Source of the DNA: a virus
Length of the DNA: 64,000 bases
Virus record (IMG/VR): IMGVR_UViG_3300032722_000006
Span: 1-64,000 of that record
Strand: one strand, 5' to 3'
The notes beneath the pieces are model-generated. The model saw only the letters and a list, made by a program, of their open reading frames with translations. It was not told the origin of the DNA and ran no database searches. Positions 32,243 to 35,667 of the stretch are shown here, one piece after another. Both the position numbers and the translations under genes were made by a program. Position 1 is the stretch's first letter. Each line of letters starts with the position of its first letter.

Positions 32243-32282
32243 GCAAGTCTAAATGTACATCACTGAAAGAAAGCGTAAACTC

Positions 32283-33689
32283 ATGAGCGACGATTTTAAC
32301 ATCATACTTGATACTGACTCGTACAAGGCCAGTCACTGGTTACAGTACCCTCCGAACACCACAAGTGTCTTTTCCTACATCGAGAGCAGAGGAGGACGCA
32401 GCACCGAAACGGTCATGTTCGGGCTTCAGTATTACCTCAAGAAGTACTTCACAAAGCCGGTGACCATGGACATGGTAATGGAAGCGAAGGAATTCTTCGC
32501 GGCCCACGGTGAGCCTTTCAATGAGGAAGGATGGGTTCATGTTGTGAAGAGCCACGGTGGACACTTACCCGTTCGCATCCGTGCCGTGCCCGAAGGCACT
32601 GTCGTTCCGACACACAACGTTCTCGTCACCGTCGAGAACACCTGTGATAGGTGCTTCTGGATCACCAGTTGGATCGAGACGATGCTATTACGCATCTGGT
32701 ACCCGATCACAGTCGCTACTGAGAGCCGCGAGATCAAGAAATTGATCCTCTCACACCTCAAGCAGACGAGCGATGATCCTCAGGCAGAGATCAACTTCAA
32801 GCTGCACGACTTTGGCTCACGTGGCGTCTCAAGTCAGGAGAGCGCAGGGATCGGTGGAGCGGCGCACCTTGTGAACTTCATGGGAAGCGACACGGTCGTC
32901 GGCGTGTTGACTGCGAATCGTTACTATGACTCTTCAATGGCAGGATTCTCGATCCCGGCAGCAGAACACTCCACGATCACATGTTGGGGACATGAACACG
33001 AGGCTGATGCGTACCGTAACATGCTTCGAAATTTTGCGAGGCCGGGCAAGCTCGTTGCGGTCGTCAGCGACAGCTACGATATCTTCAATGCATGCGAACA
33101 CCTGTGGGGAGGTGAGTTGAAGCAGGAGGTCATCAACTCCGGCGCGACAGTCGTCATTCGTCCCGATAGCGGCGATCCGGCGACTGTCGTGGAGCACTGT
33201 CTCACGCTGCTTGACAAGAAGTTTGGGTCAACGATCAATTCTAAAGGGTTCAAGGTCCTCAACAACGTACGTGTGATCCAAGGCGATGGAATCAATCGAG
33301 AGTCAATCGATGAAATCCTCACACTAGCTCGCCAGTACTTTTTCAGCGCATCAAACATCGCATTCGGAATGGGTGGTGCGCTCCTGCAACAACACAACCG
33401 CGACACGCAGAAGTTTGCGATGAAATGCAGCTACATGGAGGTCGACGTCAAAGGCGTTGACATCTTCAAGGATCCCATCACAGATCCTGGAAAGAAGAGC
33501 AAGCGAGGTCGCCTTGACCTCATCAGGACGCTTGATCGTGGGATCGAGACCGTGAAGCTGGAGAAGTGGGGACCGTTCAAGCACTTCCCTGATGCTCACC
33601 GTGATTCGATCATGGAGACGGTCTTCGAGAACGGTGAGATCACGAAGACGTACACGCTTGACGAGGTACGGCACAATGCACGGACATGA
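32283..33689 (+). CDS. nadV: Nicotinamide phosphoribosyltransferase (NAMPT)
   Basis: DTDSYKASH, LHDFGSRG, SIPAAEHST, VVSDSYD, IRPDSGDP and QGDGI. Confidence 0.93.
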   Translation: MSDDFNIILDTDSYKASHWLQYPPNTTSVFSYIESRGGRSTETVMFGLQYYLKKYFTKPVTMDMVMEAKEFFAAHGEPFNEEGWVHVVKSHGGHLPVRIRAVPEGTVVPTHNVLVTVENTCDRCFWITSWIETMLLRIWYPITVATESREIKKLILSHLKQTSDDPQAEINFKLHDFGSRGVSSQESAGIGGAAHLVNFMGSDTVVGVLTANRYYDSSMAGFSIPAAEHSTITCWGHEHEADAYRNMLRNFARPGKLVAVVSDSYDIFNACEHLWGGELKQEVINSGATVVIRPDSGDPATVVEHCLTLLDKKFGSTINSKGFKVLNNVRVIQGDGINRESIDEILTLARQYFFSASNIAFGMGGALLQQHNRDTQKFAMKCSYMEVDVKGVDIFKDPITDPGKKSKRGRLDLIRTLDRGIETVKLEKWGPFKHFPDAHRDSIMETVFENGEITKTYTLDEVRHNART

Positions 33690-33703
33690 TGTAAAGTCTT
33701 AGC

Positions 33704-34156
33704 ATGTCATACCAAGCACACAAGATCGCTGAACGCCTATTCCAAGGTGGTTACCCACCGGGTGGGCCTGGACTCGCAAATGCACACATCGACGTCTTGG
33801 TACTCTGTGCAAGGGAACACCAGGACACATCGTTGTACCCGGGCGTCCATGTGATCCTCGCAGGTGGTGACGACGATGCTCGACCTGAACGACTTCGACG
33901 ATTCCTGGAGATGTGGGAAGGCGCCGCCCGCGAGGTCGTGAAGGCAGTGAGAGAAGGAAAGAACGTCCTCGTCACTTGCATGGCAGGTCATAATCGTTCT
34001 GGATTAGTCGTTGCATTGGCACTTCGTGAACTAACGGGTGCAACAGGCAAGGAGATCGTGGAACACATCCAACGAACTCGTGGTCCGTTTGCCCTGAACA
34101 ACGAGACGTTTGCGAAGCACATTGAGAACAAATTTCGTGATCGCGTCGCAGTTTGA
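33704..34156 (+). CDS. Dual-specificity/tyrosine phosphatase (CX5R)
   Basis: VLVTCMAGHNRSG. Confidence 0.85.
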   Translation: MSYQAHKIAERLFQGGYPPGGPGLANAHIDVLVLCAREHQDTSLYPGVHVILAGGDDDARPERLRRFLEMWEGAAREVVKAVREGKNVLVTCMAGHNRSGLVVALALRELTGATGKEIVEHIQRTRGPFALNNETFAKHIENKFRDRVAV

Positions 34157-34175
34157 CGTTATACGTGGATAGCAA

Positions 34176-34508
34176 ATGAGAAATTGCTCTCGATGTCACA
34201 AAGATCTAGGTCACAATATTGCAGCACAATCGGTGGGCATGTGCATTGATTGCAGGATGCAATGCGCAAATCCTACGTTCACCAACTTGGGCATGTCCGG
34301 CTGCGATGATTGCAATGCATGCGATGACGATTGTTCTTCTCAGGATGATTCTTGCGATGAAAAGCCCAAAGAAACAGGCAAGCCTGAGAACGACTATGCA
34401 TGCCCAATCTGTGATCGCATGTGTAATCATGCAGAAGTGAAGTGTTGGTGGTGTGGCAATGACTTTCCCGGTACGCCGTGGTCGAGGATCCCATGCTTAC
34501 ATACTTGA
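34176..34508 (+). CDS. Cys-rich zinc-ribbon protein
   Basis: Several CxxC pairs (CSRC, CIDC, CPIC, CWWC). Confidence 0.55.
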   Translation: MRNCSRCHKDLGHNIAAQSVGMCIDCRMQCANPTFTNLGMSGCDDCNACDDDCSSQDDSCDEKPKETGKPENDYACPICDRMCNHAEVKCWWCGNDFPGTPWSRIPCLHT

Positions 34509-35008
34509 AAGGTAGTGCGACAGAACCGCAAGGAAATGGGAAGAAGGTAATCGCGCATATCTGCAATGATATCGGTGGATGGGGCCGGGGATTCGTACTG
34601 TCAGTGACGAAGAAGTGGCCGAAGGCCGAGGCCGATTATCGCAACTGGTACCAAGGAAATTTGCCTCTAGAAACTGACGCGCCTCCCTATCCTGCTTTCA
34701 AGCTCGGAAGCGTCAGGTGCGTGAAGGTCTCAAACGACACCTGGGTTGCAAACATGATTGCTCAACATGGCATCATGCAGGACGCGAACGGCATTCCTCC
34801 CATCCGTTATGATGCACTACGTGATTGCCTTCGCACGCTTGCAATGTTGGGCTTTGACAGCATTCACATGCCACGCATCGGGTGTGGCCTTGCAGGTGGA
34901 AAGTGGAGCGAGATCGAGCCCATCGTGCTTGCTGAACTATCTGATGTCGATGTCTTCGTGTATGACTACGATGTTTCCGGACCTGCAAAGATCGCATGGC
35001 AACCATAG
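34493..35008 (+). CDS. Macrodomain protein (Poa1p/DarG-like ADP-ribose processing)
   Basis: IAHICNDIGGWGRGF, VANMIAQ and HMPRIGCGLAGGKW. Confidence 0.88.
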   Translation: MLTYLKGSATEPQGNGKKVIAHICNDIGGWGRGFVLSVTKKWPKAEADYRNWYQGNLPLETDAPPYPAFKLGSVRCVKVSNDTWVANMIAQHGIMQDANGIPPIRYDALRDCLRTLAMLGFDSIHMPRIGCGLAGGKWSEIEPIVLAELSDVDVFVYDYDVSGPAKIAWQP

Positions 35009-35010
35009 GA

Positions 35011-35039
35011 GTGTACATCCTAGAAACGATGGTTATAGT
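35011..35039 (+). promoter_or_regulatory. Promoter of the leader/Pth2-like/tRNA operon
   Basis: GTGTACA-16 nt-TATAGT, ATG 7 nt downstream (35047). Confidence 0.65.
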
Positions 35040-35046
35040 TACGAAC

Positions 35047-35140
35047 ATGACTGGCTTCCTCTGAATGCAAGGCGCTTAAAGCGCGTGGACCTCCCATGGT
35101 AGTGATTCTCCGGGTTTCGTTGAGTTTCACTTTCACATAA
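35047..35140 (+). promoter_or_regulatory. Putative regulatory leader: uORF MTGFL-UGA; its +1 frame encodes CKALKARGPPMVV... to TAA 35138-35140
   Basis: Manual translation of the 35040-35151 intergenic region. Confidence 0.45.
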
Positions 35141-35151
35141 AGAGGTTCATC

Positions 35152-35667
35152 ATGTCACATCACATCGGTCTTCAGGTCCTCCGCGCGAAGGTTCGCGGTT
35201 TTCAAGCATCAGGTCAGTCACTCACACACCTCATCTCCAAGACGGAGAAAGAGCGCAAGAGCAATTTGTGGAACAAGAAGCGTGATTTGGGAAAGTTCGC
35301 CCGTCTTCACCTCATTGCATACGGATTGCTTCGCGGTATTCCCTACGAAAGGATCGAGAAGTGCGCAAAGGACAACAGGCCAAATCCTCAGCAGGTGTTC
35401 GAAATCATCAAGGAACACAGCAAGAACGTGTGGAAACCGTTCATGGTCGACGGAAAGCAGCACGGATGTCGACTCGACGAGTGGACTCTCGAAAGGGTAA
35501 GGGAACTCCTCACGGTGAAGGATGCCGTTGCGGAGCCTGTTGCTGCAAGCGAGCCGTGCTCGACAGCAACCGTCGCCTCGCAGCAAATCCAGTCCCAAGA
35601 ACCACCTCCTCGGTCTATCTTGGACCGTCTCGTGGCCCTCACGCGGCCGCAAGAAAAAAGGGCCTGA
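35152..35667 (+). CDS. Basic hypothetical phage protein with RLHLIAYGLLRGIPYERIE motif
   Basis: 171-aa ORF with AGAGG SD. Ends in UGA. Confidence 0.8.
   Translation: MSHHIGLQVLRAKVRGFQASGQSLTHLISKTEKERKSNLWNKKRDLGKFARLHLIAYGLLRGIPYERIEKCAKDNRPNPQQVFEIIKEHSKNVWKPFMVDGKQHGCRLDEWTLERVRELLTVKDAVAEPVAASEPCSTATVASQQIQSQEPPPRSILDRLVALTRPQEKRA

Follow-up and report, generated by a model that had tools for sequence, protein, structure and literature searches.

Among the RAPP-like cores of ribosome arrest peptides, RGPP causes the most robust arrest. This behaviour was found in several peptide contexts, both in vivo and in purified systems, and the arrest was not relieved by EF-P (PMC12992588). Upstream open reading frames (ORFs) of the RAPP/RGPP type are widespread ahead of sec, yidC and other genes (PMC10987492). 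The present analysis concerns an RGPP motif in the leader of a phage operon, which is located in the first 64,000 nucleotides (nt) of the IMG/VR record IMGVR_UViG_3300032722_000006 (hereafter the window). The phage genome is a single contig of 145,283 bp with 53% G+C, and the window is its first part. The leader is a 143-nt spacer. Its 5' neighbours are genes of nicotinamide adenine dinucleotide (NAD) salvage and ADP-ribose genes, and its 3' neighbours are a gene termed gene X, a gene for a Pth2-like peptidyl-tRNA hydrolase and a transfer RNA (tRNA) gene. As judged from sequence comparison, the spacer is fairly likely to be a translational switch that reports whether the stop-reading tRNA of its own operon works. 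The elements of the leader, including the Shine-Dalgarno (SD) sequence of gene X and the strand predicted to pair with it (anti-SD), are given below.

35012..35039, plus strand: promoter-like element, with a -35-like TGTACA (35012-35017), a 16-nt spacer and a -10 TATAGT (35034-35039)
35047..35064, plus strand: mini-ORF 1, MTGFL and stop TGA (ATG ACT GGC TTC CTC TGA), followed by A at 35065
35062..35065, plus strand: candidate quadruplet codon UGA-A, complementary to UUCA of the operon tRNA loop
35065..35079, plus strand: mini-ORF 2 in frame 0, MQGA and stop TAA, whose ATG abuts the TGA (TGAATG)
35066..35140, plus strand: +1-frame reading CKALKA-RGPP-MVVILRVSLSFTFT-stop, without a start codon of its own
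35072..35084, plus strand: hairpin A, GCGCU-UAA-AGCGC, 6 nt past UGAA and abutting the anti-SD
35084..35095, plus strand: RGPP arrest motif, CGT GGA CCT CCC
35085..35093, plus strand: anti-SD strand GUGGACCUC, overlapping the Arg, Gly and Pro codons
35140..35150, plus strand: SD AAGAGG and the next bases, GAGGUUCAU, sequestered by the anti-SD in the predicted fold

The RGPP motif lies in the +1 frame relative to mini-ORF 1. This frame contains a TGA at 35048-35050 and has no ATG, GTG or TTG ahead of the motif. From 35066, the +1 frame reads CKALKARGPPMVVILRVSLSFTFT and ends with the stop codon TAA at 35138-35140; AGAGG (35141-35145) follows immediately on the 3' side, and the ATG of gene X is located at 35152. 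When TGAA is read as one step, the product of the leader is MTGFL-X-CKALKARGPP.... The leader, the frame of the RGPP motif and the tRNA loop had been described in an earlier note on this DNA, and every sequence statement in it was exact when the coordinates were rechecked.

The proposed mechanism would begin with ribosomes that initiate on the promoter-proximal, probably leaderless mini-ORF MTGFL ending in UGA-A. In the absence of recoding, release factor 2 (RF2) would terminate, the SD of gene X would stay in its helix with GUGGACCUC, keeping gene X and the Pth2-like gene off. If UGA-A is decoded by the tRNA with the 8-nt loop (anticodon UUCA), the ribosome would enter the +1 frame and translate the six codons of CKALKA, followed by Arg-Gly-Pro-Pro. 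The arrest would then occur with the RGP-tRNA in the P site and Pro-tRNA in the A site. A ribosome arrested on the Gly and Pro codons would occupy the anti-SD, which would free the SD and allow gene X and the Pth2-like gene to be translated. We infer that stalling occurs, that its effect is activation, and that the shift is an A-site reading of a quadruplet rather than a triplet reading with realignment. The candidates for the sensed variable are the abundance or charging of the tRNA, its competition with the release factor, and a built-in delay. The delay is among them because the same unit ends with the tRNA gene. Speculatively, a +1 design at UGA may keep leaky ordinary UGA readthrough from triggering the switch.

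Relatives of the leader were gathered solely by homology of gene X (protein identity or protein alignment), blind to the leader itself, and 50 distinct leaders of uncultured phages were obtained. A scan of viral contigs with a single-protein pattern gave nothing, and an alignment-based scan was needed. In metagenomes, 65 homologues of gene X were found, one of which is fused to Pth2. An R-[G/A]-P-P motif was present about 65-80 nt ahead of the start codon in 50/50 leaders. The codons at each position were distributed as follows.

Motif Arg: 50/50 leaders; CGT 26, CGA 12, CGC 5, CGG 3, AGG 3 and AGA 1
Motif Gly: 49/50 leaders, as GGA, GGT or GGG; GCA in leader L082, giving RAPP
Motif Pro 1: 50/50 leaders, mostly CCT
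Motif Pro 2: 50/50 leaders, all four codons
Motif position -1: Ala in 30/50 leaders, all four codons

The residues past the motif are variable, and a stop codon occurs there in some leaders. For leaders of equal length, the synonymous share of substitutions was 48% in the motif frame vs 20% and 22% in the other two frames. Moreover, CKAVEPRT-RGPP was retained across five or six silent changes. In a relative whose gene X is 62% identical, the spacer is almost identical, and an insertion of 12 nt leaves the +1 frame open. The comparison of these leaders indicates that the +1 frame of the motif is under coding selection. A usable start codon in the motif frame was found in 0/50 leaders, and the sole GTG (L042) lies immediately ahead of the Arg codon. 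The comparison likewise indicates that the motif is reachable by recoding only.

A chance origin of the four-residue motif had been raised in the earlier note. This caution holds for the motif taken alone, which is unremarkable: a six-frame translation of the 145-kb genome contains 12 occurrences of R[GA]PP. The chance expectation in one 143-nt spacer is about 0.006 occurrences, yet the spacer was picked from 64 kb. The motif is lifted above chance because R[GA]PP is kept in all 50 leaders, whose collection took no account of the leader sequence. Further leaders of the RGPP type were not recognisable in the phage genome or in a 309-kb relative.

The frame of the motif was related to the stop codon of the mini-ORF. 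In the TGA class, the mini-ORF is 4-28 codons long and ends at a conserved TGA-A in 36/36 leaders. The motif was in the +1 frame in all 36, at spacings of 16, 19, 22, 25, 28, 34, 40 and 58 nt, which are all 1 mod 3, and the base after TGA was A in 36/36 of these +1-class leaders. Where the mini-ORF ends in TAG (n = 6) or TAA (n = 6), the motif was in frame 0 in 12/12 leaders, two to five codons further on. The mini-ORF of L086 has two codons and the stop TAG-A, with the motif at +1, and the one remaining leader, L043, has its motif over the start codon of gene X. The alignment of homologous upstream regions, which the earlier note had suggested as a check, thus revealed conservation of RGPP, of UGA-A and of the frame break, with a frame relation that is invariant despite indels. 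The codon before the stop varied across the leaders (CUC here; UUC, CAG, GGC, GCC and UUG). With a varying P-site codon before UGA, P-site slippage is unlikely, and an event in the A site would be needed.

The tRNA of the operon in the window has the following features.

36031..36106, plus strand: tRNA with an 8-nt anticodon loop A-C-UUCA-A-A and an encoded CCA, 7 nt past the Pth2-like gene (ARAGORN; Rfam RF00005, 44.5 bits)

Its anticodon arm is CGGA-ACUUCAAA-UCCG with a loop of 8 nt. The distance from the D stem to the T stem is 24 nt vs the usual 23, which corresponds to one extra loop base. The comparison of tRNAs was limited to lineages with a tRNA inside the fetched operon (n = 33), and the classes were as follows.

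TGA-A, +1 frame: 22 lineages; tRNA N-Y-UUCA-A-N with an 8-nt loop, often in two copies
TAG, frame 0: 5 lineages; tRNA CUA
TAA, frame 0: 5 lineages; tRNA UUA
TAG-A, +1 frame (L086): 1 lineage; tRNA C-U-UCUA-A-U with an 8-nt loop, in which UCUA pairs with UAG-A

The stop codon and the anticodon were concordant in 33/33 lineages, and the frame and the loop size were concordant in 31/33. Loops of 8 nt accompanied 23/23 of the +1 leaders, and loops of 7 nt accompanied 8/10 of the frame-0 lineages. The comparison of sequences therefore indicates that the stop codon and the frame covary with the operon tRNA. The link drawn in the earlier note between the leader and a tRNA loop complementary to UGAA is strengthened by this result, as the anticodon changes with the stop codon across lineages.

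The earlier note had also proposed that the leader senses UGA decoding or the availability of RF2. The first part, with decoding by the operon tRNA, is favoured by the comparative data. The second part would imply a sensor similar to prfB, in which a spontaneous +1 shift occurs at UGA-A upon slow termination and the tRNA is dispensable. As in prfB, a short ORF ends in UGA and has a +1 continuation, and termination and recoding would compete at the same codon under any model. The P-site codon (CUC, and others in relatives) is non-slippery, however, so that the P-site tRNA cannot re-pair in the +1 frame, and no internal SD-like run is located ahead of the site (ATGACTGGCTTCCTC). Furthermore, a switch of the stop codon to TAG or TAA coincides exactly with a CUA or UUA tRNA in the operon and with a motif in frame 0, which is not expected of an RF2 sensor. 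This explanation is hence regarded as quite improbable.

The secondary structure around the SD was also evaluated. In the minimum-energy fold, the anti-SD at 35085-35093 pairs with 35142-35150 (z = -1.9), and the energy of the duplex is -13.3 kcal/mol. The helix between the anti-SD and the SD consists of seven pairs, each retained by 35-41 of 41 leaders. Between the third base of the Gly codon and the base after GAGG (SD+5), the pair was A-U in 33, U-A in 5 and G-U in 3 of these 41 leaders. According to this comparison, the pairing between the anti-SD and the SD covaries, with one compensatory pair. Hairpin A was found in most +1 leaders and was absent in the frame-0 classes; its stem covaries as GCGC/GCGC, GCGG/CCGC and GUGC/GCAC. 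The arrest site coincides with the anti-SD and is about 50 nt from the SD. By analogy, an arrest on the anti-SD at this distance is the geometry of activating arrest leaders.

These structural data also bear on an explanation at the level of RNA only. In this case, GGACCUCC would be a mere anti-SD in a structured 5' untranslated region (a thermosensor, or a protein- or RNA-binding leader), and the mini-ORF and RGPP would be by-products. An anti-SD must contain CCUCC, which reads Pro-Pro in one frame. The z-score of the fold is modest, and nucleotide conservation of the spacer extends to phages with 62% identity in the flanking protein. All three observations agree with such an element. However, the Arg codon swaps between the CGN and AGR families, and a Gly-to-Ala variant (RAPP) exists. 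All indels between the stop and the motif are frame-keeping, and the frame follows the type of stop. In addition, the synonymous excess is confined to the motif frame, and the stop covaries with the tRNA anticodon. The RNA-only explanation is disfavoured because it predicts none of these features, and it is considered highly improbable.

The start of mini-ORF 1 was also compared across relatives. The sigma-70-like promoter was a match from a consensus scan and is not significant by itself. The ATG of mini-ORF 1 is located 7 nt after the -10-like hexamer, and there is no SD ahead of it. The sequence (C)CTGTACA is kept across relatives, and the distance from TGTACA to the ATG or GTG of the mini-ORF was 34-37 nt with a mode of 35 (about 29 lineages). 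With this conserved start spacing from the -35-like motif and no SD ahead, mini-ORF 1 is probably leaderless. The peptides of the mini-ORFs fall into several types. A conserved peptide, M-F-G-M-Y-T-Q-C-Y-P-Q-M-I-L-R-E, of the type MFGMYTQCYPQM(I/F)L(R/K)E, was found in the TGA-A, TAG and TAA classes, sometimes as a tandem duplicate (L018, L035, L036, L037, L038, L069, L072, L108 and L109). Other leaders have alternative peptides, such as MTGFL, MSTERIITF and MQFL.

Several observations weigh against the proposed tRNA-dependent switch. Two frame-0 TAA-A lineages, L085 (CGUUUAAU) and L107 (ACUUUAAG), carry an 8-nt loop with UUUA on the only tRNA in reach.

L085:2901-2978 and L107:3568-3641: tRNAs of frame-0 operons with 8-nt loops that contain UUUA

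A second tRNA that could explain L107 was not found on its whole 12.6-kb contig, which contains only the tRNA with the 8-nt loop. Hence, either an 8-nt loop alone does not dictate the +1 frame, or a second tRNA is located elsewhere. An alternative reading of the UUCA loop is U33 followed by the triplet UCA, with an extra 5' base. The nascent chain at the stall would be only 15-16 residues long; the contexts in which RGPP arrest has been measured in published work are longer. The codons of RGPP overlap the start codon of gene X in L043, which does not fit a simple unmasking of the SD. Moreover, the model assigns no role to mini-ORF 2 or to the conserved TGAATG. The lineages share descent, and the counts given above overstate the number of independent events. 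As a separate observation, the tRNA of L107 and the UUCA tRNA of the window have a common scaffold of the anticodon arm. The nascent chain, MTGFL-X-CKALKARGP, contains no hydrophobic segment, and a signal or membrane segment for coupling to Sec or YidC is lacking. Mini-ORF 2 was found in most TGA-class leaders; its length and stop vary, and the usual stop is 7 nt ahead of the Arg codon. The mini-ORF and TGAATG could serve termination-reinitiation, or could merely reflect the Cys codon of the +1 frame.

Some of these observations touch on the output of the leader. Recoding and RGPP arrest may both occur and lead to an output other than simple SD unmasking. The stalled complex could itself serve gene X and the Pth2-like hydrolase as a substrate or decoy; alternatively, the stall could act through Rho-dependent polarity that sets the level of the downstream tRNA, through mRNA cleavage or through repression of gene X. 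A stall over the start codon of gene X, where the motif of L043 lies, would block initiation. The position of the tRNA at the 3' end of the unit, the status of the Pth2-like gene as the conserved partner of gene X (fused once), and mini-ORF 2 with the conserved TGAATG, which the simple model leaves unaccounted for, are also in line with such an output. By contrast, the 7-bp helix between the anti-SD and the SD, with its compensatory pair, is kept in 35-41 of 41 leaders, and the arrest site falls exactly on the anti-SD at about 50 nt from the SD, as in activating leaders. An output of this other kind is thus rated unlikely, though with more credit than the RF2 sensor. In the variant leaders L043, L044 and L080, the +1 frame continues after TGA-A with RKAYEA-RGPP; the codons of RGPP fall in the 5' end of gene X, whose ATG is located 6 nt before the Arg codon, and there is no separate SD helix.

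The two protein genes that the tRNA-dependent switch would control are given below.

35152..35667, plus strand: gene X, 171 amino acids, a basic helical hairpin and a small domain; no Pfam or PHROG match
35676..36023, plus strand: Pth2-like peptidyl-tRNA hydrolase, 8 nt past gene X (PF01981, E = 3.4e-8)

The AlphaFold model of gene X had a predicted local distance difference test (pLDDT) score of 80.5. For its fold, Foldseek gave no match at E <= 0.001, and VIA-align gave generic helical hairpins only (Z <= 8.3). The Pth2-like gene adjoins gene X in almost all fetched loci with listed genes. In P0063, a metagenomic protein of 233 amino acids, the N-terminal domain of gene X is fused to a Pth2 domain, which argues that both proteins act together. 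In L017, L018, L106 and L107, a protein with a PF01588 tRNA-binding domain and an HD_4 hydrolase (PF13328) are encoded between the Pth2-like gene and the tRNA. With these genes in the operons of relatives, the entire unit looks tRNA-centred. Speculatively, the role of gene X and the Pth2-like protein would be to handle stalled or peptidyl-tRNA products of suppression.

A service of the tRNA for recoded or frameshifted phage genes was considered and was rejected as far as crude tests reach. The phage ORFs are intact under the standard code. Long +1 continuations were not in excess at TGAA (9/59) compared with TGAC (14/75), TGAG (8/55) and TGAT (9/69). The coding density under the standard code was equal in the phage and in the 309-kb jumbo relative of the TAG class (G004), and G004 showed no sign of stop-codon reassignment. 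By these tests, the tRNA is not needed for the own genes of the phage, which fits a dedicated regulatory pair. G004 has two adjacent CUA tRNAs 3' of the gene X operon, a transfer-messenger RNA (tmRNA) gene, and a tRNA-Stop (tta) in its main array.

G004, 228801-228949 and 162403-162774: tRNA and tmRNA features

In the phage genome, 52 tRNA genes were predicted by ARAGORN. The 51 genes other than the operon tRNA are on the minus strand at genome positions 76570-110905, outside the window, and include a 92-nt tRNA-Stop (tta) and three tRNAs with irregular anticodon loops. On the 5' side of the leader, the NAD and ADP-ribose group (32253-35008) encodes NAMPT (478 amino acids), a dual-specificity-phosphatase-like protein, a small ORF and a macro-domain protein. 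In several fetched relatives, this conserved group is found in synteny with the gene X operon. A scan of the window with Rfam gave the tRNA as the sole match. DNA and protein searches with the region and gene X gave no match in an annotated phage collection.

On balance, the data lean modestly towards a broader reading of these leaders and tRNAs, which is likewise drawn from sequence. Phages would carry dedicated stop-reading tRNAs, including natural quadruplet decoders of UGA-A and UAG-A, whose conserved and perhaps main target is the leader of their own operon. The tRNA would act in trans through the RGPP arrest and switch on gene X and the Pth2-type hydrolase. The system would be a self-test or timer of decoding and the first natural regulatory four-base codon. 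If this reading is true, arrest-peptide regulation gains a new input, namely whether a specific tRNA decodes a stop or four-base codon. Four-base decoding, so far known from suppressor mutants and engineering, would have been shaped by natural selection jointly with its target site. Furthermore, natural tRNAs that read UGAA and UAGA, with matched reporters, would be available for genetic-code engineering, and a handle would be gained on why tRNA-rich phages with the standard code keep suppressor tRNAs beside a peptidyl-tRNA hydrolase. In the literature searched, there was no description of an arrest motif whose access depends on a suppressor or quadruplet tRNA and none of natural phage decoders of UGAA or UAGA.

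The known systems closest to the leader each share part of its design. In the RAPP/RGPP arrest peptides (ApdA, ApdP, SecM variants and the RGPP upstream ORFs of Streptomyces; PMC10951233, PMC10987492, PMC12992588), an R-[A/G]-P-P core likewise ends a short upstream ORF, and the stalled ribosome is presumed to open an SD-sequestering stem; for the leader, this pairing is computed. By contrast, the motif of the leader is out of frame or behind a stop and needs recoding. The leader also lacks a signal or membrane segment and any link to Sec or YidC, and its chain has only about 15 residues; its arrest codons are themselves the anti-SD, and its setting is a phage. In prfB, which encodes RF2, a short ORF also ends in UGA, and the competition between a +1 shift and termination sets the output. 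Unlike prfB, the leader lacks a CUU-U slippery codon and an internal SD stimulator, its shift is apparently specified by a dedicated tRNA, and the shifted product would be an arrest peptide and not the regulated protein.

On the side of the tRNA, SufJ, SufD, SufB2 and engineered decoders of UAGA and other quadruplets (PMC4238358, PMC9094753, PMC4764823) also have anticodon loops enlarged by one base and complementarity to four bases of the target, as is seen for UUCA with UGAA and, in L086, for UCUA with UAGA. The phage tRNAs differ in being conserved wild-type genes with a conserved natural target; unlike frameshift suppressors, the 8-nt loops of two relatives face frame-0 leaders. In AMD1, where readthrough is followed by arrest at the C-tail (PMC13025110), the arrest peptide is also reached only past a stop codon. 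That system is eukaryotic, however, and uses near-cognate readthrough without a dedicated tRNA, and its stall limits the upstream ORF without SD unmasking. Finally, in synthetic feed-forward circuits with suppressor tRNAs (PMC7969014), expression likewise occurs only if a suppressor tRNA under the same input decodes the stop. These circuits are engineered and place the stop inside the gene itself, with no arrest peptide and no SD switch, whereas in the phage operon the stop lies in the leader, and its decoding by the operon tRNA would lead to the arrest motif and the SD.
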